Below, piece after piece: positions 15,321 to 52,921 of a stretch of DNA of 64,000 bases. The notes beneath the pieces were generated by a model. The model did not search any database. It saw only the letters and a program-made list of their open reading frames with translations, and was not told where the DNA came from. The position numbers and the translations under genes were made by a program. Within the stretch, counting starts at the first letter, position 1; each line of letters starts with the position of its first letter. The stretch lies in NCBI GenBank assembly GCA_054600435.1, contig BAAIJX010000029.1:1-64000 (forward strand), given 5' to 3'. The stretch is from Neophaeotheca triangularis. Lineage: Eukaryota.

Positions 15321-17888
15321 TCACCGCCGCTGCTGCTGCTGCTGCTGGAAAACAGTCGCCTCCGTCCACCTCTGCCTAGCAGCTTTCAAAAAAGCCTCGC
15401 GCTCCTCCTCGTTAGCCCCAAGCTCGCCCACAGCCACCAGCGCCTCCTTGCCCTCCTCAAGCCCCGCACTAGCCAGCGTAGTAAGCCTTTTCAATTCCTC
15501 CAAGCTCTTGCCCTTCTCTTTGCCCTCGGGATCCAGCGCCTTGCGAGCACGCACAACCGCCAAAACAGCCCCAGCACTCTCCTTGTGAGCGGCGAGGTAT
15601 TGCTCGTTGCGCTCGGCTAGAGGGGTGGAAGGCTGCTTGCTCGTGAAAGTTGCGTCGACGACTTCCTTGACCTTGGGCGGCAGGGGTTCGGACAGCGAGG
15701 CCAGCGCGTGCTGCAAGCGGAGTTCCTGCTCGTGGCACTTGTGGCATTGCGGGTCGATTTCGCGGGCCGCGAGGAGGCATTTCACGGCTGGCAGGAATTT
15801 GCCGCGGCGGAGGTAGACTTCGAAGCCGAGGAGTTGGGAGTCGAGGTTTTGCGGGCTGAGCTCGAGCATGGGGCTGAGGAATTTCATGGCGTGCTCGAGG
15901 GGGTTTTCGCTTTCTTTCTTGAGCAGTTCGAGACCTTCCGGGTCCGTGTCTTCTTTTTTCGTCTCGCCCGCTTCATCGGCTTTGGGTTGCGGTTTCTTGG
16001 CTGCCGCTGCCTTCTTCTCCGCTTCGGCCTTTTCAGCTTCGCGTTTGGCTTTTTTGGCGGCTTTCTTCTTGTCTGCGGCGCTTTCCTCCGTGCCGTTGAC
16101 TTGGCCGTTCTTGATGTTTGCCGCGTTGTCGTGGAGGGTGAGGTAGATTGTTAAAGCCGAGAGGGCGGTGCGAGTGAAGAAGGGGTGTTCGCGCAGGCGG
16201 TCCTCCCAGCGTACCATGTCAACGTAGGCGCGGATCATACCCTTGCGCAGGCTGAAGGTGTGGAAGTCGAATTGGTCCTCTTGCCAGACTTCGAAGATGT
16301 CGTAGAGAGATTTGAAGCGCTTGAGTGCCAGGTTCAGCTTGCCTTGGCGCAGGTAGCTCTCGCCGTCTTCACTGAGATACCACACGCACTGCATGTCGAG
16401 GAGATCGCCCAGAGGACCGCCGACAGCCTCCTTGCGCGTAAACATGCCCATGGTATTAATGGCGTTCTCGGTCTCGTCATTGCGGAGTTGGTATTTGGCG
16501 CATTTGGTGTTGATGTAGCGGTCCTTGGGGTCCATTTCGCGGGCTTCGTTCATGAGTTGCGAGGCTTTGGCAGTGTTGCCCAGGTGCTTTTGTATTCTCG
16601 CACGCGTCATGTGGTAGGTGTAATCGGTGGCTGTGGAGTTCATGGAGATTGCTCGCTCGATGTGTTGCTGCGCTTTGGGAAGGTCGCGGGAGAGGAAGTA
16701 GTTGTAGTGTTGGGCCAGGAAATATTCTATCGCAAGCTCCCAGTGTTGCGAGGTGTCTCCCTTGATTTTCTCAACGTCGCCATTGGGTGCACCGTTACTT
16801 TGGGGCTTCTCCGACGCGTAGCCTTCGACGAGCTCCTGAATAATGTTTTTCTTCTGAGGGTTGCTGTACAGTTGCTTGACGTTTGAGAGAGTGCTAGGGA
16901 CACCTTTATTGAACATGCGCCTTAGGTATCGATCGGCGTGCTCACGGAACATGTCGCCTTCTAGGAAGTCCAGAGGTAACCTCCTTGCAGCATCGACTCT
17001 CGCGCTCTTGTCGGCGTAGCTTTGGTAGAGCTCAATCAACTTTTGATGGTCGTCCTTCCTTTCTCTACTCAGGCCCAGCGCCTTCTCCAGCCCTTCGTAG
17101 TATGCTTTCCGCTCATTGTTCCGTTCCAACAATTTCCTGTATGCGGTCTCTGCCTCTTCTTTCTTGTCCAAACGCAAAAGGTAGTCTGCACGCATATCCA
17201 TAACCGCCGTCCGGTCCAATGCACTCTGATAGCAAGTGTCGAGGTGATCCAACGCCCTTTGAACTTCACCTTCTTCCGCTATTATGCTGTTCTTATACAG
17301 CATAGCCTCGGCATGCTCCATGTCCTTCTTCGACGGCGGCTCCTTCAGCGTCTCCTCGTACTTCTGCAAGATACCCTCAGCCGCCGAAAGGTCCCCAGCC
17401 AGATGATGTGCGATCGCCATGGCCGTCCAGTTCTGTCTGAAAGCAGGCTTAGCCTTTAGCATCTGCAGCCGACTTTGCACGAAGCCTTGGTAGTCCCTCA
17501 TCTGCACTTGCAGCAGTGCCAAATCTCGCTGTATCTGCGCCGACTCGGGCTCAAGCTTCAGCGCGAATTTGTAGGCCTTGATCGCCTCGTCGTAGTTCTT
17601 GACACTGCGGTAGAGCAAACCGTAGACGTGCCAACAGACGTGGGACCTCATCTTCGAGTTGGTCAGGGCGGTTTTGCAGAGATCAAAGGCTTCGTCCTGT
17701 TTTCCCATGTTGTTCAGGATCAGCGCCTTCATGGCCTGAGTGTCGCCATGTTGGGGGCTTTTCCTCAGGATTTGCTCGGCAGCCTTGATGCCCTTTTTGT
17801 ATTGCTTCGTCTCATAGTTCTGGACCAAATGCCGGAAGAGCGTTTGCTCCTTGGAACCAAGGACTTGGTTGTCCTGCTTTTGCGCCAT
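15321..17888 (-). CDS. NAT1: N-terminal acetyltransferase A auxiliary subunit (Naa15)
   Basis: TPR-rich N-terminus (YETKQYKKGIK, SHVCWHVYGLLYRS), DRYINTKCAKYQLR, DQFDFHTFSLRKG and a Lys/Ala-rich basic helix; 855 aa, intronless. Confidence 0.96.
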   Translation of the reverse strand: MAQKQDNQVLGSKEQTLFRHLVQNYETKQYKKGIKAAEQILRKSPQHGDTQAMKALILNNMGKQDEAFDLCKTALTNSKMRSHVCWHVYGLLYRSVKNYDEAIKAYKFALKLEPESAQIQRDLALLQVQMRDYQGFVQSRLQMLKAKPAFRQNWTAMAIAHHLAGDLSAAEGILQKYEETLKEPPSKKDMEHAEAMLYKNSIIAEEGEVQRALDHLDTCYQSALDRTAVMDMRADYLLRLDKKEEAETAYRKLLERNNERKAYYEGLEKALGLSRERKDDHQKLIELYQSYADKSARVDAARRLPLDFLEGDMFREHADRYLRRMFNKGVPSTLSNVKQLYSNPQKKNIIQELVEGYASEKPQSNGAPNGDVEKIKGDTSQHWELAIEYFLAQHYNYFLSRDLPKAQQHIERAISMNSTATDYTYHMTRARIQKHLGNTAKASQLMNEAREMDPKDRYINTKCAKYQLRNDETENAINTMGMFTRKEAVGGPLGDLLDMQCVWYLSEDGESYLRQGKLNLALKRFKSLYDIFEVWQEDQFDFHTFSLRKGMIRAYVDMVRWEDRLREHPFFTRTALSALTIYLTLHDNAANIKNGQVNGTEESAADKKKAAKKAKREAEKAEAEKKAAAAKKPQPKADEAGETKKEDTDPEGLELLKKESENPLEHAMKFLSPMLELSPQNLDSQLLGFEVYLRRGKFLPAVKCLLAAREIDPQCHKCHEQELRLQHALASLSEPLPPKVKEVVDATFTSKQPSTPLAERNEQYLAAHKESAGAVLAVVRARKALDPEGKEKGKSLEELKRLTTLASAGLEEGKEALVAVGELGANEEEREAFLKAARQRWTEATVFQQQQQQRR

Positions 17889-18455
17889 GGTGGTGGGTAG
17901 GGTAAATCAACAGGGCTCTTTTTACGATGCGCTGGTCGGGGGGTCCGATGTGTATTGTTGGTCTGTACGCTGAGAACGCTCAATAACAGGACCTCATCAC
18001 TGGCGCGAAATGCAGACGACTTGAGGATACTGGACAACGGTGTATGCGCGAGATGTGGTTGAGGGGTGATCTGAAGCGAATGGCTTGTGCGGTTGAAGCT
18101 TTGAAGTCTGAAGAGCCGCTCCGCGAAATGCCAAGAAATACACAATGTATATGCTCAAGGGGTGTCGTCTTCACTTTGCCGCGCTCAAGATAATTAACGA
18201 TATTAGTAGCCTTTTGAACGATGTAGCATGAATGAAGTGAAGGCATGACAGATGCCGTCACGATTTCATACAGCACTGACGACCTTACATTACTTGTCTT
18301 TCCGTAGTATTCATCATTGGATGTCGTCGATAAGTAGTACATAAAAGTACGATTACGTTCTCAAGCTACAAGTGTCTATTCTTCCATACAGCTATGTCAA
18401 GTGTCATAAATCCAGTGTCTATAAGGACTTGCGCCCCAGGGGTATCAAAAATCCG

Positions 18456-19766
18456 CTACTTGCCCCTCGTCCGTGTCGACCGTCTCTCGCCAGGGGTCGG
18501 TACCTTCTCTGCCTTCTTGGTCTTAGCCTGTTTCGATTTCTGTGAAGCTTTCGCCGCCTTCGGCTCTTCTTGCTCGATCGCACCACTGTCTGCAGGCTCC
18601 TCAGCTTTCTCGTTCAAATCAGCTTTGCTTCCTCTACCAGCTTTGCCCTTGTTTGTTTGAGGTTTAGCCACTGGTTCTGCCTCTTCCGACTCGGTCTTCG
18701 TCTTCTTCGAGCGCGACGTTCTCGTTGGCTTTTTCTCGACCTCCTCTTGCCTGACATTTTGCTTGACGTCTTCATCTGCAGCATCATCGTCCTTGGCCTT
18801 GCGCTTCCCTCGTGGAGCAGGTTTCTCCTTGGTTCTTCCTTCCGCGTCACTTGCAACATCCCCAGCCACGGGCGCCGTCTTCTTCTGCACCGTCGGTACA
18901 ATGGCACTTGTCCTGCCGCCAACCTTGAGATGCACAATCTTCTCCCCATTAGGCAGCACATTCTTGTCCTTCTTCCCAGCATCCCACCGGTACTTCATAA
19001 GCCAATTCTCGGGAAACTGTGTCGAGTCCGCCAGCGTCCCTACCGCCGTCGAGCAAACCCCAATGAGCGCGTCATGCAATCGCTTGATTTGCTCCTCGCC
19101 GAAAGTATTACTATACTGCTCCGGGTGTATCCTCGCCTGATACAAAACCTCGTCCGCAACCCAGTTGCCTACGCCACTCAGGTTCGCCTGATCTAACAGC
19201 AGTGCCTTGACCGGCACCCGCTTCCTCCCTAGCAGCTCTCCTAACCATTCCACAGTAACAACATCCCGATCAATAACCGGATCAGGGCCATTCTCCTTTA
19301 ACGGACTCTGATTCCTAATATCCCCGGCCCCACACTCCACAAGCCTGATCCTCGCCAACCGCCGCGCATCCACAAAGGCAACCTCTACCGCCTCCTTCTC
19401 CCCCTCAGCCTCGCACTTAAGCAGAAACTTCATGTACTTGGGCGGCCACTCCTGCTCACCCCGCTCTACCTCCTTCGCCTGCTTGTAATACGCAGTATCC
19501 TCGGTACTGAACTTGACCCACCCCGTCATCCCCAAGTGCATAACGGCGTGCGGAGGCGACGAGAACGTCATGTAGAAGTATTTGCCCTGTTGGCCCACGC
19601 CCGTGACTTTCTTGTTCGTGACGGCCGATTGGAAGGCTTTGGCGGAGGTTCCGACTTTGCCGTAGACGATATCATCGTCGAAACCCTCACAGATCTTGAT
19701 TGTGCGATTGACAAGGTGTCGTCGGATGGCGTCGACGACACGGGCGACTTCACCGATTTCGGGCAT
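18456..19766 (-). CDS. Formamidopyrimidine-DNA glycosylase (fungal/plant Fpg/MutM type, zincless finger)
   Basis: N-terminal MPEIGEV catalytic Pro-Glu, GKYF, HLGMTG, H2TH motif KALLLDQANLSGVGNWVADEVLYQARIHP, GGRTS, and a charged low-complexity C-tail. Confidence 0.93.
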   Translation of the reverse strand: MPEIGEVARVVDAIRRHLVNRTIKICEGFDDDIVYGKVGTSAKAFQSAVTNKKVTGVGQQGKYFYMTFSSPPHAVMHLGMTGWVKFSTEDTAYYKQAKEVERGEQEWPPKYMKFLLKCEAEGEKEAVEVAFVDARRLARIRLVECGAGDIRNQSPLKENGPDPVIDRDVVTVEWLGELLGRKRVPVKALLLDQANLSGVGNWVADEVLYQARIHPEQYSNTFGEEQIKRLHDALIGVCSTAVGTLADSTQFPENWLMKYRWDAGKKDKNVLPNGEKIVHLKVGGRTSAIVPTVQKKTAPVAGDVASDAEGRTKEKPAPRGKRKAKDDDAADEDVKQNVRQEEVEKKPTRTSRSKKTKTESEEAEPVAKPQTNKGKAGRGSKADLNEKAEEPADSGAIEQEEPKAAKASQKSKQAKTKKAEKVPTPGERRSTRTRGK

Positions 19767-20628
19767 GGCGAATGGGTTGCAGGCGACTCAAGCGCCTTTG
19801 GTAGGGAGTGGAGAGGAGGTCTTGATGAATGTGTAGAGAGGTTGCGACAGCTGCCTCGAATGCATCCAGCCAGTTGCGACGCGTTTCAACAGCTGGAGGC
19901 GACGCGCCGCGTGACGTAGAGGTACTGTGCTTGTCCTTCGGGTCAGAGTTGGGGTTCAACCCGTATGGGCTCACGGTGTGCCGAGCATTATCCGGGGCTG
20001 GTGGTGTGTTTTGATTGATTTTATATGCCCTCCGTTCGCTTGGAAAGCATTGGTTGTATTTGGTATGGGGTTGATTGGTACACATTCGCCAGTAATATTA
20101 CTTTTCTCTAAAGCTGTGGCACCGGTGAACAAAAGCTTGACACCCTACTCGAGCTCACTTCTGTCTTTTGAACTCCCGCATTCATCCGTCGCTTGCCCGG
20201 GCTATTTTCATGACATATGGAGCAGCCTGACTCTCTTCACGGACATCAATGAATCTGATGTCGAGGTTTATTCAGTGTTCGTCACCATTTAACTCGTTCC
20301 TGTGATGAGAGGGTCCGCTAGGAACATTCACTTCGCGCGTCCACAAGCTAGCACGAACTGCTTGCGGATTCTTTACAGCCAACGAAGCAAAGACATGAGC
20401 CACGGCCCGCGCAATCCGCGGGAGCTTTTCTCGACGTCATCCGGCTCCTCTTCAGCCCTAAGACCACTTGGGCAGACCGTAAGCGCCAACCTTCAATGGC
20501 TTCAAATTGCGCCGGACTGCCGGTCCCCGATCTCCTCAGTCTCGATGCTCACCCTACTACTGTCGACCGCTGCTCCTAGGTAGCCCCCGACGCCGCACCA
20601 CTGCACCACCTCCTCCGTCTACCCAGTC

Positions 20629-30200: not shown

Positions 30201-31466
30201 CATCGGCGATCGTGAGAAAGTAGAATTTCCATGCCGCTCCACCCCTGACCGGCGGCCGCCGCTTGGCCGACGTGAAGATACTTTCTGCAATAATATTTTC
30301 ACCATCAGCTGGGCAGCGCAGGTTTTCCCTGTAAGCTCTCAAAAAGGCATGCCGCCAGATGGGAAGATTTTGGGTCGAAAGATGCACGAACAGGAACCCC
30401 GCTTTGATTGACGAGCACAGCAATATTACGCGAGGCGCGTTTTCTTTTTCGAGTAGTAAGACTATCCCCATCCACTGCTCTTGATATCGTTCGCAGCGTT
30501 CCTGCGATGCGCTCGTAGCAGACTCGAAGCCGTCTCGCGTCGGAGGCAGCTCTGTCAGCCCCCCAAAATTCACGTGTCACTGCTGGACCAGCACGAGATC
30601 ATACAATCATCGATACAGTCGTAGCCTTTTGACGGAGAGTCCAGACATCCAAAGAACTCTCTCTGGATGCACAAACGTTGCACCCGCTGACCTGTCTACC
30701 CTGAATCTCTCCAGGGTGGACACACTTGGATCGCTGTGATCGCTCCCGTTATCTTGGGGATCAGCGGTCGCAAATGCGCCAGCTTTCTGCAGGGCAAGGG
30801 GCCGCGTTGAGGCTTTCGAGGGATCATCCAACGCTGTGGCTCAGGGAGCCAGGGACGTCGGAGCCAGGACCGTCGCCGTCGACCGACCGTCCTCCGAGAT
30901 CTTGAGGGGACCTCAAAGGCTCGACCTTGAGCCTCGCCCAAGAAGCCTCACCATGTGCTCTTTTGAAGAAAGGTCAGCGGACATCCATGATGTTTTTGCC
31001 GCCGGATTCCACAAGCGTCACGTATCATGGAGTGTCTGTAAGTGAGCAGTCAGACCTAGTCTACATCTCACTCGCAAAGTATTAGCAAACACCAGTCTCG
31101 TCTACACGGTGTTGAACCTTGTGCAGACGGATCGAGCCATGTACTGTAGATGCGATGCAAGGAGGCAGCCATGCTGATCGCTTCTTGAGAGAAGAACTAG
31201 GGAGGTTTGATTGATATTGACGCCTCCCGCCATCTTATTAACTCTACCGTATGCAGTAAAGCGAATATCGTGATTGAGATGGTGTAGTTGGCGGAAGGCA
31301 GGGCAGGCCCAGCGACCAGATCTTGGCACATGCCGTTATCTCGTCTTATCGTAATCGTTATCTTAGCTTTATCTGCAATCTCTCGTTCAAAATCTCGAAC
31401 TTCACAAGCTACTAGGTAGCTGCCTTATTTCGTCCACATAACCTCACAAACAGAATCGCCGACACA

Positions 31467-32426
31467 ATGAAGGTCGGAAAACCCAAGTCAAAGAGAACGC
31501 CCACTCGTCTGCGGCACAAGATTGAAAAAGCTTCAAACGCAAAGCAGAGGAAGGAGCGCAAAGAAGCGAAGAAAAACCCACAATGGCAATCACGACTAAA
31601 GAAGGACCCGGGTATTCCAAACCTGTTCCCGTTCAAGGCAAAGATGCTTGAAGACCTTGAAGAAGGCAGGAGGCAGAAGGAGGCTGAGACACAGCGAAAG
31701 CGGGAGGTCGCCAAAGCGCAAAGACAAGGACTTGCGGTCGCCGATGCAGACGGCGGCGCTAAGATGGCCGAGGCTGACGACGACGAGTTGGTGGATGATG
31801 CGGAAGACTTTGGTAGTGACGATGAAATGGATGAGGGCGATAGCAGCAACCCTATGGCTGCTCTGCTTGCCTCGGCGCAAGCTAGGGCACAGAACTTCCC
31901 TGAAGCGGAGGATTCAGAAGAGGTCGATGAGTCTGACGAAGAGGAGGGAGGCGCCGTGGTTGGCGTAGACAAGGCCGGGTCATCCGCGCCAGGTCAAGCG
32001 ACGAAGAAGGCTCTACCCAAACAAGCGCTGGCGGATCCCATCAAGACAGTATCGAAACTCGTCGACCGCATGCAGCAAGTTGAAGGTGGTGTCGACGCGA
32101 TGCTGAACCACTACAACATCCCACCGCTTGTCACTGCCGGAAGCGACCTCAACACTCGTTACCTTGTCGACGTCGCCAGGAAGACCGGTCGGTTGGGCAA
32201 GGGAGGAGTACCAAATTTGCACTCGGCAGCCCTGACGGTGCTCACGGACATCAACGAAGAGCGACTAAAACTGCCGGTACCGGCTCAGAAGTCGCGAACG
32301 ACTGGGAAAGGGGAGGTCCAGATTGTTTCGCAAATGGCAGAGCCATTCAGCATCGAAGGCCTGTTCGCCAACCCCGGAAAATCCTCTTCTGCCGGTACTG
32401 GTGGTGCCATGGTTGTCGACTCATGA
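31467..32426 (+). CDS. NUG1: Nug1/Grn1/GNL3 (nucleostemin-family) pre-60S factor lacking the central GTPase domain
   Basis: The N-terminal SKR..RLRHKIEK...KKDPGIPNLFPFK (GN3L/Grn1 domain) and C-terminal VARKTGRLGKGGVPNLHSAA are recognisable. No DARDP, NKxD, GxxNVGKS or DxPG motif occurs anywhere in the 319 aa. Confidence 0.88.
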   Translation: MKVGKPKSKRTPTRLRHKIEKASNAKQRKERKEAKKNPQWQSRLKKDPGIPNLFPFKAKMLEDLEEGRRQKEAETQRKREVAKAQRQGLAVADADGGAKMAEADDDELVDDAEDFGSDDEMDEGDSSNPMAALLASAQARAQNFPEAEDSEEVDESDEEEGGAVVGVDKAGSSAPGQATKKALPKQALADPIKTVSKLVDRMQQVEGGVDAMLNHYNIPPLVTAGSDLNTRYLVDVARKTGRLGKGGVPNLHSAALTVLTDINEERLKLPVPAQKSRTTGKGEVQIVSQMAEPFSIEGLFANPGKSSSAGTGGAMVVDS

Positions 32427-33493
32427 TGGATGTCGTAGAGATTTCGTGACTTCTTTCCTATATTCGAGGCACCGCTGGCAACGATCATCCTTCCGATACG
32501 CCTTCACCAACCTGAGCGCTTGACCATACTACGTCTGCCTTTGCTAGGATATCTACGGCTACGGTACGGTCTCTACCTTTTGAGATCCGTCGTTGTCAGT
32601 AGTAACTCTCCGCTGGTGAACCTTCGGCTCTCCTCTGCGCGTTCCCTGCCAGAAAGGGCAAGTAACCGGCCAGTAGACAGCATCTGTGCGGCGTTTGGAG
32701 AAACTGGTTTCGTTGGGCAAGCGGGCGAATGGCGCAACGACTTAGACTCCGAACAATTATGTAGCGCCTATGAAGTTTTGTCCGTAGCGTACGAAGCGAC
32801 ACTTTTTGCCTGCCAGAATGTTAATGTTCGGTCGTTATGTCAATTGGATGGTGTGCAAGTAACCTGTAAGAAGCCGCCATAAACTCTCAAAATTAAAAAA
32901 AGAGCACGCGGAAACCGCGTTGAAACAGAGCATACCTAGCCGTGAGAAACGAAAAGACGTCGTTCGTTGGCAGAAGTAAAAGGTACGTTGCAGAAGTCCC
33001 TGCTCGGCGCCAGTGGAGTGGGAGGAGTGAAGTAAGAAATGGATATAACATACTATATCATGTCTCGAAAGCTCAACAACTCGTGCTATTTTGTCGCAAA
33101 CTTTCTATGGCCCACTGGTCCTTGCGTCCTTGTCCACGCAAGCATACCCAGAGAGAAATACCCAGAGAGGAAAGGCTACCAAACAGCATCTCGACAGTCT
33201 TGACAATACTTCATAACCCTCATCTCGCCCGCTGGATGAGCATCTTGATTGAAAGAGAATATCAATTACACCCGAGAAATTCTGTAGAGAGAACATGGCT
33301 GGGCGGGGTCGCCCTTCGAGCCATGTAAAGCCGTCTCCGCCAGCTTGCTCTGATTTCGTCGAATTCTTCGTCTGATCAAATTCGTACTCTCAAGCATGAA
33401 GCTTCGAACAACAAGGCCGAACATTACCCCTTCATCGTATCGTGTTGTACAAAGACCACAGTCGTCGTCAGACCATCATCAGTGCTCGCTCAG

Positions 33494-36400
33494 TTATTTC
33501 ATGGGCGGATCTCGTACGCTGTGCCAGCGCATGTTGAGCACTTCCGGACGATCAGTCGGTCCCTCCAAACCTGTCTCGGTATCTGTATCGAGGCTGGCAT
33601 GGATACCTTCGGCATCGTACACGGCGCCGCTCTCGTAAGACGGCGCTGCACGTCTGGTGAGCCTGGTGTTTTCCGCCAGAAGCACATCGTCGACATCCCC
33701 CAACTTATGTGCATCGTTGCGCGCTTGGTTTCTGAGTTCCAGGTGTACTATGCCTTCGTACCGAGGGACATTGCCACGGGAGCCTTCGTTCGCAATCGCT
33801 GGCGGACTTGGGCGGACTGCTTCTGCATCGAGATGAGTATCCGTTGTCGCTTCCTCTGCATCTGGAGTTGGGATAGCATCTCTTGGCTCAGACTCATCGT
33901 GACGCTTCCTGGCATTCGGTCCACGCCTAGTGTAGCGAGAGTGGTCTTCAGACACCAAAGCCCTCTTTCCAGAACCAGCCCTGGGCCCATCTTTCGAACC
34001 AGTCTTGTCTGCTTGCGGTGCCGGCTTCCACTCCTTGAGATCAACAACGCTACCAATTCCACCAACTGGATACAACTGGCGGATCTTCGCAGCATCCCCG
34101 GCAGAAGGACGTGATTCGTGTACATTTCGAGCGCCGCCTGGCCAAATACCTCGCTCACCTTCGGGCGCGTGCTTGCGAGAGATGATATAATAAGCCTCGT
34201 TGTCCGGGTCGCCGTCATGCCGAAGCGAAGGATAGTGCATAATGGAGTCATAGTCGTATTCTTGCGACCACTGATAATCTGTCAGGTCCGATGCTTCATC
34301 GAGACAAGTGTACGGGATAGCGGCGGGGAAGAGCCGTCGTGCGCTTGGATGTTTTCTCGCCCTTAACAAATCCCAGTTAGTATGTTAAAAGCGAAGAAAG
34401 GGGGACAGGGGAGGGCGGGCTTTCACTTACATGTCCATTAGCTCGTCCCAAGAGCCCTCAAAGCGAATGCGTTCCACGGGACTCTTCACCTCGGGGGCCA
34501 TTGCTTGGCTCGCCCCCGAGCCTTTTAAAGCTTCTGTACCAACGCCTTTGGTCTTTCCTTTACCGAAGACGATCGGACCGCTGTTTTCAGAGGGCAAAGT
34601 GCCACTGCCGCCCTCGAATTCTTGCACGGCGTTGTCGATCAACTCTCCAAAGGCCACCGGGACATGTATCTCTTGGCTCGTGGGACGAAGTGGCTTCAGC
34701 CGTGGCGGCATCGGGGAATTGACCTCTTCTGGGTCCTTGTACGTCCTCATTGCTCGTTCGAAGGCTTCTTGGTAACCGACGATGTTCCAAGGCTTGTATT
34801 CAATGAAATTATCCCGGTCGGGTCTCTGATGTTCATGACGCAGTCCCATCACGTGGCCTATGATCACCGTTAGCTTTTCGAGCTTGAAAGTATCAAGGAG
34901 AGCACGCAAATAGTGGGATACACACCGAACTCGTGAATTGCAGCTTCGACGAGAGACGCTGCCCCCCTGTTAGACATCTTATCAGCCAATCTACAAAGCT
35001 CCATGATATGTTGATCATCCTTTATGTCGTAGCGATAGCCATACGTCGCTAGGGGGATACAGGCCTCGGAAAAGTTCCACTCTAGCGAATCTGGCTCAGC
35101 GTCGTCTTTGGATACATCACGGATTTGTAAAGCGTCCAAGGAAACGCCCGTGCTGCCGCAATATCTGTAGATGTCGCCTCTGCATCCAGGGTCGAGTATT
35201 ATCTCAAGGCTCGTGCTCGCTTTTCCCACTGTGTCAAGCCAGATCTTGATAGCCTTTCGAACGGTTTCGTCCAGTCTCAGGGCTGAGCGCCTGTCGACAT
35301 AACAATAGCGGATCCTCTGTGAAAGTTCTCCATTTGCTGGGGGCCAAGGCCCTATTGTTCGATCGCCTTCTACTCTGGGCTGATCTCCCGAGATTTTGGG
35401 AGCTGCGAGAGGGTGAATGCCATGCCAACGCCGCGGCAAAGGGAAACCCGCACCTTCTGATCTAGCATCCGATGGAGCGCGACTGCCCACTTTAGAATGC
35501 TGTTGATCATCTGGGCGGATGTTCCCGAGCGGTTCGTTCAGGGCTTTCGCTCCGTGTCCGCTCGTACTCTCGTCGACGTCAGATGAATCTCCGGCTCCGG
35601 AGGGTGAAGAATCGTCGTCGGAGGGAAAGTAGGGGCTTGTGACAGATTCCTCCGCCTCACTGTCACTACAGTACACACTCGGCGCTGCGCCCCATCGGGC
35701 CATGGCCACCGCATCCGTAGAGCCTGACTTGGGGTACATTGCCACCAGTCTCGCAATGTCCCCTTGGGAGACCTTCATTTCGCTGGGTTTCCGGGCCCCG
35801 CCTTCCCAGACCGGTTCTTCCGTGCCTTTGCGTTTGATGATGAAAGTCTTTGGGTCAAGTTCCTGGTCGCTTTCGCGCTCGGGCATCAAGATTGAGCTGT
35901 ATAGCATGATCGAATCGTAGTCGAACTCCGTCGAGTATATCTTGTGCCGGCTATCCTGAGCATCGAAGGGCTTCCAATCTGTAAGAGCCAGGAAGCCGTG
36001 GCGAGCGGCAAAATCGATGTCTTGAGTCCTGTGCAGTGTCAGCGCGGAGCAAGCGCCGATGGTAGTCTCCATGTCGGCTTCGTGACTGCCAATGACTGGG
36101 GTTCTTACATTTTCACCTCTATTTCTTTGATTGGCATTGATTTGCACTCCTCAGACCGCTTTGCCGCATCCAAAGCATCCGCGTAGTCTCCTAAAACTTT
36201 GTAGTTGAAATCGAGGAAAGACTCGGCGTCTGGTCGTTGATGTTCGTGTTCCAGTCCCATGGCGTGGCCTGTCGCTCCGAAGTCTGATTAGTCTTTGTGC
36301 ATTTGTTTTGCTAGGAGCCTTCAGCCTGGCTGCCGAGCGTACTCACCAAGCTCATGAGCCATCACTGCATTCTTGTAAGTCTTGCTTATCAGACTCAAGG

Positions 36401-40240: not shown

Positions 40241-43200
40241 CTACAAATATGCCAAACCCCCACCCCCGATAATCTCCAGATCGCTCCTCAAGCCCCAGGC
40301 ATCACCACCAGCTCTGCCCAGTACTTCGGCTCTGCGCGCAGACCCCAGCTCGCTGATTCTTTGGATAATACCTCCGTCAATAACGCCTCTAGCGCCTAGA
40401 CCCTCGCCGTCGGCTGTCCTGTAAGCGCGCGGATTGAGGCCGGCGGGGTGCTCGAGAATAGAGGTCAAGTGCGTTTGCAGAGCACCGAGGCGTCGGTAAG
40501 TGCCTTCATCGAGGGGCGTCACCAAGCCAGCGGCACCTGATTGGAAGGTCATGAGTACGTGGAAGAGAGAAGAATCCTGGTGCTCTGTATCGCCGTTCGT
40601 ATTGCCATTGGTCATGGGTTGGTCGGTGAAAGGTGCCAAGGATGAAGGCACCAAGTGCATGCTCGTAGGGAAATGGCCCAGGTGGAAGGTGCTCCTATGC
40701 AACAGTCGCGAGCCCGAAAGACTTTTGGGGTTCTCCGGATCGTACTGAAGCACGTGCAAATCCATGTCGGCGTCGATGATAAGAATGTAAAGCTCGCCGT
40801 CATATGGGAGAAACTCGGCGGACATGATCTCCATTGTCGGCCGACTCTTACCAAGAACACTGAGCTTGTAAGGCTCTTCTGTGAACCCGCCGAACCACAA
40901 CCCCTTCCAAGCATCACCTGCCATCCATAGCCCGCTTTTTCCGAGCGTCTTGAGAGTCGAGGTATATGCCTGGGCATCTAGGAAGGCCACTGGAAGGCAG
41001 GACCCTTCTTCGCGAAGACCACGTATCATGAGCTTCTGTCCTTGTGCAATGCCGACCAATCCGTAAGGGAAAGACTCCAGAGTCGTGACTGGACCCTTGG
41101 TCTCCTCACGGGCAACTACGCTGAGCTTGACACCAGTCTCGGGCATGTCAGGTTCCGGTACTACGTCAAGTACCTCAAAGACTGTCAAGAACCCTTTCGT
41201 GGGCAGATCCTCACCGCGGTGAACAGCCGATCCAACTGCCACCCGCAAAGCCTTTTCGCGCGAGTGCTCGGACACCTCGAGTGTCATTACCTTCAACGAA
41301 GTGACGATCTCTGCGTAGGGCATGGGAAACGAGTGCAAAAGCTGGTGCGATTTGCCGGACAAGAGATGCAGCGTGTACTGTTGTATCTGAGGATGAAGGC
41401 CTTCTTCTTTGCGATAGTCAGCAAGGGATGCTTAGCCAGCCATCGCGTGCAAATGTCGTAGTGTATGTTTCCCCAAGAATAAAGTTGAGCCTGGATGAAG
41501 TGCCAAGCGAAACTGAATAAGAAGGATGTTTTGATCTAGCATCAACTATAGACGTCACTCCACTGAAAAAGGAGGAGACGTATATGCTCGTGATGCAACA
41601 GGTGTGGATGAATGTTGGGGGAAATCAAACTTACCATTTTTGTCCGGAAGAGGTCCGTCTTCTTCAGACGGGAAGTAGTCAACATTTCTACACGACGCAA
41701 CGACATGAAGGTGTCTATCCTCGTGGTAAGAAATGTGCTGAACCTCCTCTGGCGGGTTGCCAAGCTGCGTCTTATGTACAGACCAGCCGGTGCCATACTC
41801 AGTGTCTTGAGGAAGTTTGCACTCTTGAAGCTGCCCTTCCGAGTTGAGCAAGGTGAAGTCAGCGCTTGAGTCAGCCCAGTGTACAGGCGTCAATGATTGC
41901 GCCTTTTCGCATTCAAGTGCCAGCACTTTTGGAAGGCTGTCGGCTTCCCGAAGCATGAGCGAAGCTGCAGCACCCGGCACTAGGACCGCGTTATGGCCGG
42001 CGACTTCGAGCGCTCGCAACGATACATTGTTACCCTCGGCCTCCTCGGTTGATGATTCGTCGTATTTCGGAAGGTAGTTGAAAGGCACCTTGCGGAAACG
42101 CAGATCTTTCGTCCAATTGGACCTATCAGCGCTGGAAAATGAAGGGTATCGGAAGGGTTCGTAAAGGGTGAGATCGTCGCTGGCGCTGCGCAATATCATA
42201 TACGGCGACTCGAAACCAGTAGGGCCGAGATCAGCCACCAAAACCTCGGTGAGCGTCTCTTTGGCTCCAAGGCGTCGTTGAGTCGAATCTTGTGAGATTA
42301 CAGGCGGGAGATGGGTCACGTTGGGCAACGAGCAATAAGGCGTAAGCTCGGGCAACTTATATAGCTGGAAAGCGCCCTCAGGCCCAAGCATGAAAGCAGC
42401 CGTCTCGTTGAACGTCAAAACGCCCGAGTACAAACATGCACTCAGCCATTTCGTGCTAGCAAAGTCGTTGTTCGGCTCGACCATTTCAAGTTCGCCGCTC
42501 TTTTCAGCTTTGAGGACCTGTACGCTGCTATCGTCTCGTAGTACGAGCATGTAGGGGTCGCAGAAGGAAGCATGTAAGATCTTAAGCTCGGCATCCGTTT
42601 CGTCGTCGGTCATTGGGATCATCTGAACAAGGCCCAAATTGTGGTCGTATGTGATTATCTCAGTGCGTCGGCACTGCACGATCTGAGTGCCATCCGCTAG
42701 CGTGCTGATAGCAAGAGTTTCACCATCACGCTCGAACTCAGTCCCCGTGCGCTCGACGAACTTCGAGGAGGTACTTTCCGTTTCCTTCTGGTCATCTCTC
42801 TCGCCAGCATTAAGATCATATACTTTGGTAACCTCGCCGTCATATGCGAAGAAGAGATTGTCGAACAGGGCGACAGGCTCATCAGAGTCCTCTGGCTTAG
42901 GTCGGGCACAAATACTCCACGTGCCTCGTGCACTTGGCATTTTCCTGCTGTGTGTAATTTGGGGCGTGATCTCTTTGCTCATGAAAGTAAGCCCGCTAGC
43001 ACGACCCCGGCCGGTTGCTGCGACGAGCTTAAGCTTGTCTCCGTTCCTCCCAGACTTAGTAAAGGACATGTCGTTGATGGGACCTGCCGACAGCAGTGAG
43101 TCCAGAACTTGGAATCTGTAGGCAGTAGAAGCTTGAGGGACTGAATGGTCTGGAGATTGCTCTCTTTTCATTGACGCTGCAGTGTTCGCATACAAATCAT

Positions 43201-44611
43201 CATCTTCGTCTTCTTCCGACGAAACATCTGCGTCTACATCCGCGTTTTCCGTTGTCATTTGAGCGTGCGAGCGTTTGCGGCTAGGCTGTTGCGTTGATCG
43301 CGTCCAGCCAACGAGCTTTGAGTCACCGTCTTCGCTGCCAATGAACACCTTCGCGTCGTCGAGCATGGCCGTGCAGGAAGAGGAGCTATCAATCAAGTGG
43401 CCCCCATTCTCGGCCTGGACAGGCGCGAGGCGAAGTCCGCCTACATTTCGTCCAGCCAAGTTGAAGCTAAGCGTTACCAGAGATCCATTGTCGAGGCTGA
43501 TAAGCATGTCACCAGATTCAGCACCAAGATGTTCGATTTGGCATCTTTCAAGCTTCAGGCCGAGGACGGACTGGTCTGTGAGAGTGAAATTGGTGGCCTG
43601 CTTCGCAAATTCGTTGACAGCGACACCGGTCGTTTTACCGCCTTGATCGACATGGATCAACTCGTTGGCACCAACCAGAAGGACACCACCAACTGGGAGC
43701 GGAAGTGGTACCGCTCTCCACAAGTCCGAAGGGAGGTTTGGTACGGAAATGAGGCCGGTAGAGGCTCGTTGGTCAAGATCCAGTGTAATGACATGGTAGG
43801 TCAGGCAGTCTTTGCGTTCCTCTAGCAGGGCGCTGGACGGCACCACTTCGCTCGACAGTACACCGAATGTGGGTTCTCTGTACTCGTGCAAAAAAGCAAG
43901 GTCCACAGGGTGCTTGAACGCGGGGTCTAGAGCCGTAAGCGGTAGAACAAAGGATGACTTGTATGGTGTCTGCCTCGCCTCGCTGTCCGCCTCGTTTTGC
44001 TTCCCATGCGCGTCCTTGCTTTTTGGCGCACCAGAGTCCGGCGCGTCTGTCATCTCTGCGTCAAACCCTGCGTCCTCGCCATCGGCTAGCAGCTCATCTC
44101 CCAGCTGTCTGAACGGTAATATTGCCAAGTGTCGTTGTCCGAACTTCAGCGCGGCGCATCGTGAACTGGGATCGACCGAAAGGATGCTGGAGCAGTCGGT
44201 CAGGGCGGGCCCAAAGGGCTGATTGATGATGTTTTCGCCCTCATAGTAGTGGATCGATATGGTACTGATACGATGGTTCTGCGGATCCCATTCCACAAGA
44301 GACAGTCTGGCCTCTCGTGTAGCTACCAGCAGAGCCGAGCCTCCTGATTTGCTGTTAAGAGTCTTTACGCTGGAGAGAGCTGTGACGGTGCCCGAGAGAG
44401 GGTATTCCCCTATCAGAACCAGCTTGCAATGAACGCTGAGAGCACTAGCACCATTGCTCTTGTCCGATTGGCCATGGTCGTTCTGCAACGCGAAGACTTG
44501 TAGCAATGAGGTCTTTGCTACTACGAGGTTCTTCGCTTGGCCATGCAGAAACGGCAGAGCTACAGCGTGAGTTACTGCCGTCGATGGCAGCAGCTCAGTA
44601 TAGCACTGCAT
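40241..44611 (-). CDS. CFT1: Cleavage and polyadenylation specificity factor subunit CPSF160/Cft1, 2 exons (44611-41635, ~41406-40241)
   Basis: MQCYTELL..TAVTHA, ISTISIHYYE, FLHEYREPTFG, QYDPENPKSLSGSRLL..TFHLG and GLNPRAYR motifs. Intron has a GTAAGT donor at 41634, a GCTGAC branch point and an AAG acceptor near 41407. Confidence 0.95.
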
Positions 44612-46066
44612 TATCTCGATGGTTCACTGTTGTCTGGGCATCGAGGTTTCATTGCGGCGGGAATAGCACAATTCAAGATACACCTCACGTTTGGAGCTCG
44701 CAAACCTCCCATGTCAACCTTACCTTGCCTTCGAATAAACGCGACTTTGGCCGAAGCTTTACCGGGCGCCAAGACTAGCGAGAGCGACTACACCCCGTGA
44801 ACTTCATCTCGCCGATGTCCCCAACTCTAACTTAGAGGCTAGCTGTACACGGCTCCTGCGAAGAGGACCTGTTGCCATCCATCAAGCCTCTGTGGATCAA
44901 TATGGAAGCAGTTGTTTCTCGCGCGCTTACGAAGATTTGTCGCACTTCGCTTCAGGCTGCCAAAAAAAAAAAAAAAAAAGGCGATCTTTGTGAGGCCGCC
45001 TTCATGCACCTCAGCTGGTGGTAGGGCGTCATTTCAGCTCCAAAAGGGGCAACCAATCTTGTTCATTTATCTACAGCATGACATTGATCCTGCGTCCTAA
45101 TGATCTTGGCTTACTTTGAAGGGCTCTATTGGATGTTTTTTCACCGGTCGGTCAGCTATCCAACAGCCTTGCATAGACCGGTCAACTGTTGTCCAATGGT
45201 CCGCCATCTCAAGGTCTCTCTGGGGCTCTTTAAGAGGGCATTGCGGCTCTGCACTGAGATACTATAAGTTCAACACCTTCGAAAGATGCTCCAACCTTTC
45301 ACACCCTCCCGCCGCATCGCACTCAATCACACCGCTCGCAACAAAATGTTATACAATTTGGTGCCACTCCAGGTTAGCAATCATCACTGTTCACCACCAG
45401 AGAGATTCACGCTTTGAACCACCACTGCACTGAGCACGCGATTTGAAAATTGGCAGCCGTACGTCCGACAGAACTCGCAAGGGCCGGACTTGGGGACTCT
45501 ACTGCTGACACGCTTTGATGATCCAGTGACAAAAGGGACACCGCCGATGCGTGATGAGCTTGGACGGAAAGTCTGCCCGAGAACCTTTGCTAGCCTCAGG
45601 ACCTGCCCCAGTTGCCTGAGGATTCCCTCAACTCGAGTCTGGACCTTGACAGCGCACGAAATATATGCATCAGTGCCCATGTCCAGGCAAAGATGGGCGG
45701 TCTTGAGGAGGTCGAAGGGCGGCTTCGGTTGCCTTGTCACGTGACATATTTCTGATTGGCCGCCCTTGGTGAAGTAATGAGGGTGCCACAAAGGGCGACC
45801 GATAGGGTCTTTCTCTAAGACCTGGGCAGACAAGAATTTTCTCAGAAGGCAGGCACGCATGCAGGGAGTACTCGAGCTCGCCTACCAACGGACCTCGATG
45901 TGTTGCGAGGTGAGCGCCGATCACCTTGGGCCACCTTCTCACCTAGCTACCAAGTCCTTCCATCGCCCCGCTTGAAAAGTTCCCTCTCCCCTCTTATCAG
46001 GCTGAGCACTTTTTCTGTGTCTATGTAGCTAGCACAGACTCAGCTTTTCAGTCAACTGTCGCGGCA

Positions 46067-50307: not shown

Positions 50308-52921
50308 ATGGAGTCTGCGCGCAAGCGGAAGGCCAACGCGACGCCCTCCTCAGCCGAGGGGAGCGGCGCGAAGAAGTTGAAGTTGCTGGTGAGTCGTCGC
50401 ACATCCCCTTACACTTTCGCGTTGCTGTCGCAGTGGTGGCATACTGTCTCAGAGATAAGCTGCTGCTCGGCGGTTCAAACAATATGGGATGGTGGGGAGT
50501 GGTGGTGGTGTTGTCGTCGGCACGAGCGAGTGAAGTGAGAGGTGGTGGTGGATGCGAAGAGACGGAAGATGCTCGCTCACATCGCGTCAGAGCAAGAAGC
50601 ATTGGGCGCGGGCACTTCTCAAACCCAGTCTAGCAGCGACCTCCGTCCACCCCTCCAACATGCAGACCACCCGACAGCACTGCCATCACCACCACCCCAT
50701 CTCAGCCGAGTTGTTGATAGCGAGACGGGACAAATACTGACATGGCACCCTTTGCTGTAGAACACCAGAGACACTCCCTCTGCGCCTCGGAGGGAAGATG
50801 TCCAGCAGATCGGGCAGAAGCTCATGGCGCATCTGCGTCATTCCAAGGACAAGAAGTGAGTCCATCTGCTCATTCCCATGCGGCAGGCACCAAAAAGTTG
50901 GATCGAACCCAATACTGACAATGCTACACAGTGGCCGCCTCATCGCTACCCAATTCCTCACCCTTCCTCCCAAGGATGAACTACCCGACTACTACGAATT
51001 CACCAGAATGCCCCTAGCCCTCGACCAAATCGAAGCACGTGTCGACAACGACGAGTACCCAACCCTCACGCACTTGGAAAGCGATCTCAAACGTCTGGTT
51101 CAAAATGCAAAAGACTACAATGCACCCAAGAGCGAGATCTTCGAAGATGCTGAACGTCTACGCAAGGCAGTTTACAACTACATGAAGATTCACAACCCAG
51201 CTTACAAAGACCCTGAGTATGCGAGTTTCCCAACGCCCATACCGCCGCATCTTGAGCGCTCGAACGGTGTCAACGGGCACGCTGCTACAACTATCAAGCT
51301 GAAGGCTGCGGCTGCGTCGCCGGCTCCTGAACGTGGCTCTTCCCGCAGATCTGTCACCACACCGAGATTGTCAGAGGCTCCGGATAGGAAGTCTTCGGTT
51401 GCGCCAAGTACGACGAATGGTGATGGTGATGGTGATGTTGATGTTGGGGACGGTGGCAGTGATTTCACGGGAAAGACGTTCCAACAGGCTCAGGTCAAGT
51501 TGTTGACCGATCTCATCAATTACACAGAAGAGTAAGTGTCACCCATAGCCTTCACGGTTGAGAAAGTCCGCATGCTAATAGATACCGCAGCGACGTTCAA
51601 GTCTTCTGGCAATTTGTGAACTTGCCCCCTCGCAGTATCACGGACTACTACCACACTATCAAGCACCCCGTTTGCCTGAAGAAAGTCCAGAAGCGGGCTC
51701 GTGGTCAGCACGGTCGGGCAGCACCCACTGGCATCACCGATTTCAAGACCTGGGATGCTTTTGAGGACGAGGCGAGCTTCATATGGAGGAATGCGCAGAC
51801 TTACAACGAGGAAGGTAGCGACCTCTATACGCTCGCTGAAGAGTTCAAGGTGAGCCAAGGGAAGACATCATTCGCATGGAAGCCATATTCTAATACTTTG
51901 CCAGGAAATGTTTCTTGCCCGCCTTGCTATAGCCAAAGATCAGGTGGATGAGCCCTCTGGACCCAAACTCAAACTTACTACCAAGCCCAAGGTCACCCTC
52001 AATCTTTCCCAGCGCCGCAACTCTCCAACACCAGCGGCGAATCAAGCCACACCCGCACAACCCGCCGCCACTGGCCCTTCTAGCGTCACCGTAGACAGCG
52101 ACGCACTCGCCCGACAACGCGAAATGGTCCGAGCCGGGGTCGATGGTCGACAGACACCATCCACAGGGCCAGCAGCTATCACACCACGCCCACCAAGCTC
52201 ACAAACTGCAGCAACAACCAATGGCGTCCGTCCTCAAAGTAGCGCCGCTGGCTCACCCTCCAACGTCGTCAAGAACGAACGAACCACTACCCAGTCCCCA
52301 GCCCTAACCGCCGCCACTCCCGCCCAAACAAACGGCACGAGCATGCCACCACCTCCAACTACCGGCCAAACGAGTTACAGCCCTCACCCGAGCCAACAAC
52401 AGCCCTCTTATGCGCAAACACACGTAGCTCCAGCTCTCCCCCCACCAGCACCCGTCCGGCCCTACCCAGCCGCCAACTCCAACCTCCCACTCCTAACCCT
52501 GGCGACCCACCCGCACCTCCCCCTTCCGAAACCCTTCAGCCTCACCCTCCCACCCCATCCAACCCTCGCACAGCAATCCACAACTTTCACGCTGCCCAGC
52601 ACACACTATTTCCTCCAAATCTCGCCCACCGTCTCTCGCGATCTCTCAATGGGCGCCAGAGCTTACCGCGTCTTTGTCTCTCTCAACGGTTTGCGGCTGC
52701 AAGCTAGAGACACGGTCTTAGATCCCTTGGAGGGGAAGCGGAGACTGGTCTTTGAGTGTACGCTTAGACCTGGGGTAAACAGGGTGGAGGTCGAGGTTGT
52801 GGCTGTGGGTAGGGGAGGCAAGAATGTCGGTGGTGGCGAGGGCGGTGATGGTGAGGGCGGTGAAAGTGAGCCCGGGTTGGAGGTCGAGAAGGTTACTGTC
52901 TTTGTTGGGTTGGAGAAGTAG
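50308..52921 (+). CDS. Tandem-bromodomain chromatin-remodelling protein (Rsc4-like), 5 exons
   Basis: Two bromodomains (FLTLPPKDELPDYY...NAKDYN; FVNLPPRSITDYYHTIKHP...NAQTYNEEGS) and a C-terminal Ig-like segment (LRPGVNRVEVEVVA). Introns approx. 50389-50760, 50856-50931, 51532-51590, 51850-51904. Confidence 0.88.

Follow-up and report, generated by a model that had tools for sequence, protein, structure and literature searches.

The stretch of DNA analysed here (hereafter the window) comprises 64,000 nucleotides, positions 1 to 64,000 of contig BAAIJX010000029.1 in the Neophaeotheca triangularis assembly GCA_054600435.1. At 31467..32426, on the forward strand, it contains one intronless open reading frame (ORF) of 319 codons, running from ATG to TGA with zero internal stops. 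Judged from its sequence, the encoded protein is probably an orthologue by descent of Nug1 (Grn1 in Schizosaccharomyces pombe, GNL3/GNL3L in animals) that is devoid of the circularly permuted GTPase domain (G4-G5-G1-G2-G3) and would serve as a GTP-independent factor of pre-60S particles. Nug1/GNL3 is counted among the six GTPases taking part in eukaryotic ribosome assembly (PMC12956347). In those yeasts, moulds and animals in which it has been studied, the protein is a GTPase.

Domain architecture of the Nug1-like protein

An in-frame stop lies 17 codons 5' of the ATG of the Nug1-like ORF, and the predicted N-terminus, MKVGKPKSKR, agrees with the N-termini of relatives. A Pfam scan of the 319-amino-acid (aa) protein assigned it to a sole family, PF08701 (GN3L_Grn1), at residues 13-87 (E 6.2e-27; 94 bits, the cut-off being 22.3; 1-75 of the 77 profile positions), and yielded no match to MMR_HSR1 (PF01926) up to E = 1. 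When PDB sequences were searched with phmmer, the best match was Nug1 of Chaetomium thermophilum (8pv1_CL, 558 aa; E 1.5e-49), with query residues 3-164 corresponding to 8pv1_CL residues 8-171 and query residues 181-268 to residues 403-493. Since the matches come as two separated blocks, residues 172-402 of 8pv1_CL are without a counterpart in the query. The same two-block pattern was obtained against S. pombe Grn1 (8esq_s) and Saccharomyces cerevisiae Nug1 (3jct_s), and the best matches to Nug1 and Grn1 have E 1.5e-49 to 6.5e-32. The five highest-ranking PDB sequences are Nug1 or Grn1 without exception, not Nog2, Lsg1 or Mtg1. Aligned with full-length Nug1, the short protein has its N-domain, PMAALL helix, C-domain and tail in collinear order.

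A regular-expression search of the 319-aa protein found no NKxD, no GxxxxGK[ST] and no DARDP, and the two DxxG matches that it did return are due to chance, both lying inside acidic linkers. Residues 1-90 carry a net charge of +18, residues 91-180 one of -25 and residues 181-319 one of +3. A preliminary description of the locus had proposed an intact, intronless 319-aa ORF combining a basic N-domain, an acidic linker and a C-domain, with the circularly permuted GTPase motifs absent, and both points are borne out by the results above (ORF, Pfam, phmmer and charge for the first; Pfam, the phmmer gap and the motif search for the second). The features of the gene are listed below; identities are mean pairwise values among 30 short forms (0.29-0.34 in the linkers), pLDDT denotes the predicted local distance difference test score of a structural model described further on, and a slash within a sequence marks a break.

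31467..32426 (+): whole ORF, probable G-domain-less Nug1/Grn1 orthologue (ORF, Pfam, phmmer, 120 listed relatives)
31467..31736 (+): basic N-terminal domain, residues 1-90, PF08701 at 13-87, charge +18 (Pfam E 6e-27; helices with pLDDT 80-93; identity 0.77)
31737..31847 (+): acidic linker 1, residues 91-127, of low conservation and predicted disorder (pLDDT <50; identity 0.34)
31848..31901 (+): conserved short helix NPMAALLASAQARAQ, residues 128-145, common to full-length Nug1 (model helix 129-143; identity 0.81)
31902..32009 (+): acidic linker 2, residues 146-181, ending with the pre-G-domain motif SAPGQATKK (in full-length relatives the G domain follows '...SAPxxRK' at once)
31983..32021 (+): deletion junction 'SAPGQATKK/ALPK', residues 173-185 (alignments; contig of run X2; 17 metagenome loci)
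32007..32270 (+): C-terminal helical domain, residues 181-268, with the predicted RbgA/YlqF-type fold of circularly permuted GTPases (cpGTPases) (C. thermophilum Nug1 403-493; pLDDT 71-93; VIA-align Z 12.9; identity 0.69)
32316..32372 (+): conserved C-terminal tail 'VQIVSQMAEPFSIEGLF', residues 284-302 (homologous to the '...IVxEWAxEFKLEGLWG' end of full-length Nug1; identity 0.71)

Within the helix, P129, A131, A132, L133, S136 and A137 are invariant in the alignment of relatives, and in the tail V284, V287, A291, P293, F294, G298 and L299 are invariant or almost so.

The deletion junction, its occurrence and its origin

Full-length proteins of Dothideales, Myriangiales, Botryosphaeriales and others, when aligned with the short ones, have the order '...EEWGGL...SAPxxRK / DSSR...[198-212 aa]...LILLN / AVPPKEIEDPVPAV...', and the order in the short forms is '...EW.GI...SAPxxxRK / ALPKQALADPIKAV...'. 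The absent block, DSSR ... LILLN, corresponds to ~207-221 codons and holds DARDP, NKxD, the P-loop and DxPG. In the window the break falls between K181 (ending at 32009) and A182 (starting at 32010), full-length '...SAPVARK/DSSR...' being matched by '...SAPGQATKK/ALPKQALADP...' in the short protein. The junction thus bears out the loss of the G domain by an in-frame deletion that fused the N- and C-domains of Nug1/Grn1, as the preliminary description had it. Its further suggestion that 'SAPG' (residues 173-176) is an eroded G3 motif, DSPG, has to be abandoned: because full-length Dothideomycete proteins carry 'SAPxxRK' immediately before the G domain, SAPG is a retained, conserved motif that belongs directly upstream of that domain.

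Two other accounts of the missing segment were considered and rejected. Loss of an exon is at odds with the N, G and C parts sharing one uninterrupted ORF in full-length relatives (L023, 3959-5605); the proteins P0320, P0303 and P0276 are likewise uninterrupted from the PMAALL motif to their end. Because full-length relatives hold the three parts in a single ORF, we infer that the in-frame deletion arose within an exon. A pseudoGTPase is rejected on the grounds that the alpha/beta G fold is absent from the structural model and the segment is deleted, not degenerated. From the sequence, then, the short protein is predicted to be a protein that cannot bind or hydrolyse GTP through the canonical site and that, by activity, is no member of the cpGTPase (YRG) group. 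Many database 'Nug1' entries of ~390-440 aa (P0276, P0303 and P0320 among them) are without PF08701; their ORF call starts at the internal Met of NPMAALL, so they represent N-truncated calls and no separate architecture.

In a word-indexed search of proteins, 120 relatives with lengths of 300-435 aa were listed; they are 50-82% identical to the query and nearly always cover 93-100% of it. PF08701 is the lone annotated family in 120 of these 120, and the longer ones (P0028, P0029, P0049, P0088) differ by terminal gene-model extensions alone. Fungal names are attached to 39 of the 120, every one from Capnodiales, Mycosphaerellales or Peltaster; a further entry bears the label Quercus suber. The named genera are Polychaeton, Saxophila, Friedmanniomyces, Oleoguttula, Acrodontium, Baudoinia, Neohortaea, Hortaea, Vermiconidia, Salinomyces, Lecanosticta, Meristemomyces, Acidomyces, Dissoconium, Teratosphaeria, Elasticomyces, Septoria, Fulvia, Cercospora, Peltaster and Zasmidium, together with a Teratosphaeriaceae sp. 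Apart from the six taken up next, these belong to Capnodiales/Mycosphaerellales. For the six, the NCBI taxonomy was consulted; it places Polychaeton in Capnodiales, Elasticomyces, Dissoconium, Saxophila and Cercospora in Mycosphaerellales, and Peltaster in Dothideomycetes incertae sedis. Short forms consisting of N- and C-domains make up three of 150 listed representatives at 50% identity.

In metagenome contigs of the Joint Genome Institute (JGI), all 17 of the 17 loci matching query residues 1-300 or more contain an intact, uninterrupted ORF of 314-329 aa that begins with MK/RVGKP or MRIGKP. Ten of these contigs (L004, L006-L013, L015) carry a distinct short-form subfamily, 'MKVGKP(T/V)SKRVSTRLHHNIKKKSAE', and have flanking genes in common among themselves; the subfamily appears to be a genus that is common in the environment.

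An assembly collapse, a mis-joined contig or a decaying remnant could in principle imitate such a gene, and the sequencing run X3 (other label and study) might be cited in its favour, with two contigs at depth ~3 covering 31469-32009 and 32015-32230, i.e. breaking at 32009/32015, exactly at the junction, and leaving it unbridged. However, both X3 contigs stop without any unlike sequence running on, and in run X2, a second sample with the same organism label, a contig corresponding to 31316-32700 passes through the junction with no indel in the ORF. Given also that the same architecture recurs in intact ORFs in the 120 listed database proteins and the 17 metagenome loci of other assemblies, and that the ratio of nonsynonymous to synonymous divergence (dN/dS, see below) is ~0.1, we regard the chance of an artefact or a pseudogene as negligible.

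The short-form sequences are public already, mostly under the automatic names 'GTPase grn1' or 'nuclear GTP-binding protein nug1'; having no G domain, they should not carry GTPase names, and the annotation calls for correction. A limited literature search encountered no description of a G-domain-less, pseudoGTPase or missing-GTPase Nug1/nucleostemin, and no paper tying Nug1 to Dothideomycetes, Capnodiales, Mycosphaerellales, Hortaea, Cercospora or Zymoseptoria.

To place the short forms among their relatives, a tree was inferred with IQ-TREE (LG+C20 PMSF) from 310 columns common to 30 short and 35 full-length proteins, the bootstrap being not fully settled (correlation 0.981). All 30 short forms lie on one side of a single branch (ultrafast bootstrap 100, SH-aLRT 98), and their internal order follows the families Mycosphaerellaceae, Dissoconiaceae and Teratosphaeriaceae. 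Polychaeton citri is the sister (98/92) of the protein from the window together with a database relative 82% identical to it. The short forms are nested among Pezizomycotina Nug1 sequences, with the placement of the clade among the full-length forms weakly supported. Nearest to it, again with weak support, are the unnamed full-length protein P0128 (on a long branch) and then P0124, P0172 and P0130; these four have 'NPQW' like the short forms, the other full-length forms having 'NPEW', and they may represent the closest surviving lineages that keep the G domain.

Full-length, G-domain-bearing Nug1 occurs in Dothideales (Neodothiora, Zalaria, Aureobasidium, Taxawa), in Elsinoe and Sphaceloma, in Botryosphaeriales and in many other classes. 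With Elsinoe and Sphaceloma belonging to Myriangiales, the sister orders Dothideales and Myriangiales retain the full protein. The simplest reading would be a single deletion in the ancestor of Capnodiales and Mycosphaerellales (plus Peltaster). The idea of a deletion fixed in a lineage, already put forward in the preliminary description, is thereby upheld and, from the listed proteins and the tree, widened to the named Capnodiales, Mycosphaerellales and Peltaster relatives.

As to the surroundings of the gene, no flanking ORF of the window between 18 and 46 kb matches any of 78 fetched loci. Downstream of the Nug1-like gene, two adjacent ORFs at 33494-34909 (-) contain pieces of an astacin-type (M12A) metalloprotease: the ORF at 34427-34906 (-) matches Pfam Astacin with E 6.9e-6 (segment 'GHVMGLRHEHQRPDRD') and the one at 33494-34369 (-) weakly, with E 0.087; the two are probably one gene with an intron. 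An ORF at 18456-19787 (-) encodes the N-terminal and H2TH domains of an Fpg/Nei-type DNA glycosylase (E 2e-27 and 1e-20) and is adjoined by a gene for a NatA auxiliary subunit at 15321-17906 (-). Two further proteins extend over two long ORFs each and are presumably intron-split, namely an RSE1/CPSF_A beta-propeller protein (41555-44623 and 40241-41431, both -) and a protein with a bromodomain and an RSC4 Ig-like domain (50741-51535 and 51854-52921, both +).

Constraint on the retained domains and the question of a second copy

The AlphaFold2 model, built from a 115-sequence alignment, has a mean pLDDT of 68 and a predicted template modelling score of 0.34, and is therefore uninformative on the packing of the N-terminal against the C-terminal part. 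It predicts helices at 13-36, 38-45, 57-86 and 129-143 and a compact helical C-domain at 185-263 (pLDDT 71-93 over the block), with the linkers below 50. Foldseek ranked Chaetomium Nug1 first (8i9w_CL, 8i9t_CL; E ~1e-5). In VIA-align comparisons, model residues ~180-279 superposed on C. thermophilum Nug1 (8i9t_CL) with Z 12.9 (rmsd 3.2, 96 residues aligned) and on RbgA (6g14_B) with Z 10.0 (rmsd 1.7), followed by Nog2 (3jct_m, Z 9.9; GNL2/Nog2 ~10), YlqF (1puj, Z 9.5), MTG1 (7o9m_C, Z 9.0) and Lsg1 (6qik_o, Z 8.8). Ranks 3-34 are occupied by cpGTPase chains from Nog2/GNL2 to Lsg1 (Z 8.2-10.6); lower-scoring rows of the family include MTG1 at Z 7.1 and Thermotoga maritima YlqF at Z 6.4-6.5, and unrelated folds reach Z <=3.5. 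As modelled, the C-domain keeps the RbgA/YlqF-type fold.

Codon comparisons by the NG86 method on the ORF of the window and the 17 metagenome loci gave 153 pairs, of which 105 saturated and five near-identical ones were left out. Most of the usable pairs derive from a single ten-locus subclade, and they lack independence. Of the 43 with 0.03<dS<1.2, 41 have a dN/dS of 0.04-0.13 and the remaining two one of 0.24-0.26. In the pair L007-L010, dN equals 0 in the N- and C-domains at a dS of 0.22-0.26. Runs X2 and X3 differ from the ORF of the window by six synonymous and two non-synonymous changes, both of the latter in linker 1, and in X2 there are five differences in the 960 nt of the ORF as against ten differences in 541 nt of flanks plus a 37-nt indel. 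(The 37 nt missing from X2 lie at 31279-31315, upstream of the Nug1 start codon.) The dN/dS values, whose calculation the preliminary description had recommended, speak for constraint and not for neutral evolution; on these codon and protein comparisons strong purifying selection acts on N-domain, PMAALL helix, C-domain and C-terminal tail alike.

Between short and full-length forms the identity is 0.68 in the N-domain, 0.47 in the C-domain and 0.45 in the tail, to be compared with within-group values of 0.69 for the C-domain and 0.71-0.76 for the tail in the short and the full group each. The drop in the C-domain and tail points to a spurt of change along the clade's stem. Behind the C-domain, the motif 'DWRDGRIQGW' of full forms has given way to 'D(L/I)NEERLKLP' in short ones, and residues 1-11 are kept in the short form. 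One might see in this sharp stem change and in the replaced motif a protein repurposed for another task in the nucleolus or in RNA binding and constrained for that role, with the part of Nug1 in 60S assembly lost or taken over; vertebrate GNL3L, too, is reported to have non-ribosomal roles (PMC12956347). However, the best-conserved parts of the short protein are those that mediate binding to pre-60S particles and to Dbp10 in yeast (the N-domain with its identity to full forms given above, and residues 1-11), and changes on the stem are equally expected from the loss of intramolecular contact with the G domain, so we hold such a repurposing to be quite improbable.

The weight of the finding depends on the absence of a second, complete copy. 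Translated in six frames, the 64-kb window gave no match to a profile of 35 G domains (best E 0.43), and neither did the 17 short-form loci, of which 92,350 bases were scanned, reaching as far as 4 kb to each side of the gene; as a positive control, the same profile matched 48 of the 78 fetched loci with E 1e-27 to 1e-123. Two G-domain searches with full-length queries covered proteins of 293-935 aa and listed the best 120 of 2641 and the best 120 of 7381 matches; one list contains 32 organism names and the other 42, and there was no Hortaea, Cercospora, Friedmanniomyces, Baudoinia, Teratosphaeria or similar genus among these 120 + 120. The list obtained with the Dothideales query (best 120, 74-100% identity, 42 named, four classes) includes Leotiomycetes, Lecanoromycetes and Penicillium. 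The sole name of Capnodiales/Mycosphaerellales among the 240 listed matches is Elasticomyces elasticus, in two rows, the list of the second query containing none.

Several points tell against a GTPase-free Nug1 working alone in this clade. The two E. elasticus rows are full-length proteins, P0404 (546 aa) and P0408 (611 aa), and bear the same species label as the short forms P0087 and P0092. In the tree, P0404 and P0408 stand beside Myriangiales and Dothideales (support 64-67), about where a retained full-length copy of Capnodiales would fall, and P0087 and P0092 group with Friedmanniomyces. The evidence on a second copy is confined to the 64-kb window, the 17 loci and the listed proteins; both searches started at 293 aa, a range that excludes smaller stand-alone G-domain proteins. 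The flanks of short-form genes match only other short-form or truncated short-form loci and never loci with a G domain. Expression may be indicated by two short contigs only, from runs that are or possibly are RNA: 180 nt, identical, from X4 ('RNA?'), and 154 nt spanning the stop codon, with four differences, from X7, a marine metatranscriptome, each too short to show transcription of the gene. Finally, yeast nucleotide-binding mutants of Nug1 are reported as viable but slow-growing, with impaired 60S assembly (PMC4770245), so the loss of the G domain is not obviously neutral.

The shared E. elasticus label, the position of P0404 and P0408, which would be compatible with a full-length lineage of Dothideomycetidae, and the part of the genome still outside the evidence together lend some substance to the idea that a normal, GTPase-bearing Nug1 is encoded elsewhere and that the short protein is an auxiliary paralogue modulating it or competing with it, e.g. 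for Dbp10 or for the binding site of the N-domain. With the best 120 of 2641 and of 7381 matches visible, a fast-evolving G-domain copy could be hidden. Yet E. elasticus stands alone (two rows) among the 240 listed G-domain matches, as against 39 named short forms among 120, and the nearest named relative of P0404 is Taxawa, a member of Dothideales (78.6%); P0404 and P0408 are 80% identical to the Neodothiora G domain. Labels in this set of rock-fungus assemblies, moreover, look loose: three short forms named 'Meristemomyces frigidus' (P0063, P0096, P0109) are merely 65-73% identical to one another, and some of these assemblies may be mislabelled or mixed. A study of 16 E. elasticus genomes reports that three were dropped from the whole-genome alignment for missing data (PMC13066726). 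A labelling problem behind the full-length E. elasticus pair is, in our view, more likely than a true second copy, and the auxiliary paralogue as a whole appears unlikely to us.

Even less can be said for a fission in which the G domain moved to a separate gene and acts in trans with the N+C protein. Proteins too small for the 293-aa limit would leave room for it, but G-domain-like sequence is absent from the window and from the tested surroundings (<=4 kb) of the gene in the 17 short-form loci, and the excision is clean and internal, with conserved residues abutting on both sides, which is not what fission would leave. Among the rows shown in an ESM Atlas look-up of G domains, which gives taxa at phylum level and serves as a lead only, no Ascomycota cluster of stand-alone Nug1-type G domains appeared. 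We therefore consider fission very improbable. (A ~430-aa Ascomycota cluster in ESM Atlas appears to consist of N-truncated ORF calls.)

On balance, we lean towards the view that a whole order-level radiation builds its 60S subunits using a Nug1 devoid of the GTPase domain, and possesses no copy to replace it. This radiation spans major leaf pathogens (Cercospora, Fulvia, Septoria, Teratosphaeria) as well as extremotolerant black yeasts (Hortaea, Friedmanniomyces).

Proposed role and comparison with known systems

The contribution of Nug1's GTP cycle is still debated. Bassler et al. 2006 reportedly found the C-domain to be essential in yeast and the whole G domain to be dispensable. According to Manikas 2016 (PMC4770245), the tested point mutants in yeast G motifs all complement nug1-delta, with hydrolysis mutants growing like wild type. 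The N-domain of yeast Nug1 is described as required for targeting to the nucleolus and for associating with pre-60S particles and as binding RNA (PMC4770245; PMC4588883; both citing Bassler et al. 2006), and as having a nuclear localization signal (PMC10899779). The latter source also reports that the two-hybrid interaction with Dbp10 needs residues 1-153, which suffice for it, and is abolished when the first 11 residues are removed, and that only the N-terminus of Nug1 is visible in cryo-electron microscopy maps of yeast pre-60S particles, beside H89-H92 (PMC10899779).

By analogy with the conserved N-domain mediating these properties in yeast, the short protein would be nucleolar, associate with pre-60S particles and have a role in 60S formation. 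It would still enter the nucleolus, bind pre-60S particles near the rRNA helices H89-H92 through the basic N-domain, dock at the immature peptidyl-transferase-centre region and cooperate with Dbp10 there, and the RbgA-type C-domain might provide a second contact with rRNA. Its recruitment and release would be independent of GTP binding or hydrolysis of its own and might be driven by the ATPase Dbp10, the entry of Nog2, and Rea1: with the nucleotide-dependent step gone, other enzymes would have to set when the protein binds and when it is released. The protein would thus act as a GTP-independent scaffold or placeholder, not as a switch.

If this is true, the GTPase of Nug1/nucleostemin would be a dispensable regulatory add-on, the N-domain and the RbgA-type C-domain would form the indispensable core, and the remodelled C-domain and tail would mark compensating changes. 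A large, old and species-rich clade offers a natural domain-deletion experiment in which the domain is cleanly gone and the rest strongly constrained. It predicts the exact boundaries for a G-deletion allele of yeast nug1 and singles out those residues in the C-domain and the tail whose change accompanied the loss, and its members could supply pre-60S particles that show the maturation of the peptidyl-transferase centre without a GTPase switch.

The closest known counterparts are Nug1 of S. cerevisiae and C. thermophilum and Grn1 of S. pombe (3jct_s, 8pv1_CL, 8i9t_CL, 8esq_s), which share with the short protein PF08701, the PMAALL helix, the C-domain (Z 12.9 and 11.0) and the tail, in the same order; unlike them, it has no segment equivalent to C. 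thermophilum ~172-402, with all five G motifs absent, and a remodelled motif after the C-domain. Human GNL3 and GNL3L belong to the same orthologous group (a weak N-domain match to GNL3, 8fkp_NB, has E 0.0032). Both of them, in contrast, keep the G domain, and their GTP-binding and hydrolysis mutants have been studied as such; truncation work in human cells suggests that the N- or C-terminal regions alone can mediate association with pre-ribosomes (PMC12956347). RbgA/YlqF, Nog2/GNL2, Lsg1 and Mtg1 have C-terminal domains that superpose on that of the short protein, but possess the G domain that defines their group, of which the short protein has the accessory domain only, joined to a eukaryote-specific N-domain. 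The yeast nug1 point mutants in G motifs resemble the short form in that a Nug1 without normal GTPase function still supports life (PMC4770245); they differ in keeping a folded G domain, whereas the short form physically lacks that domain, a condition fixed in nature.

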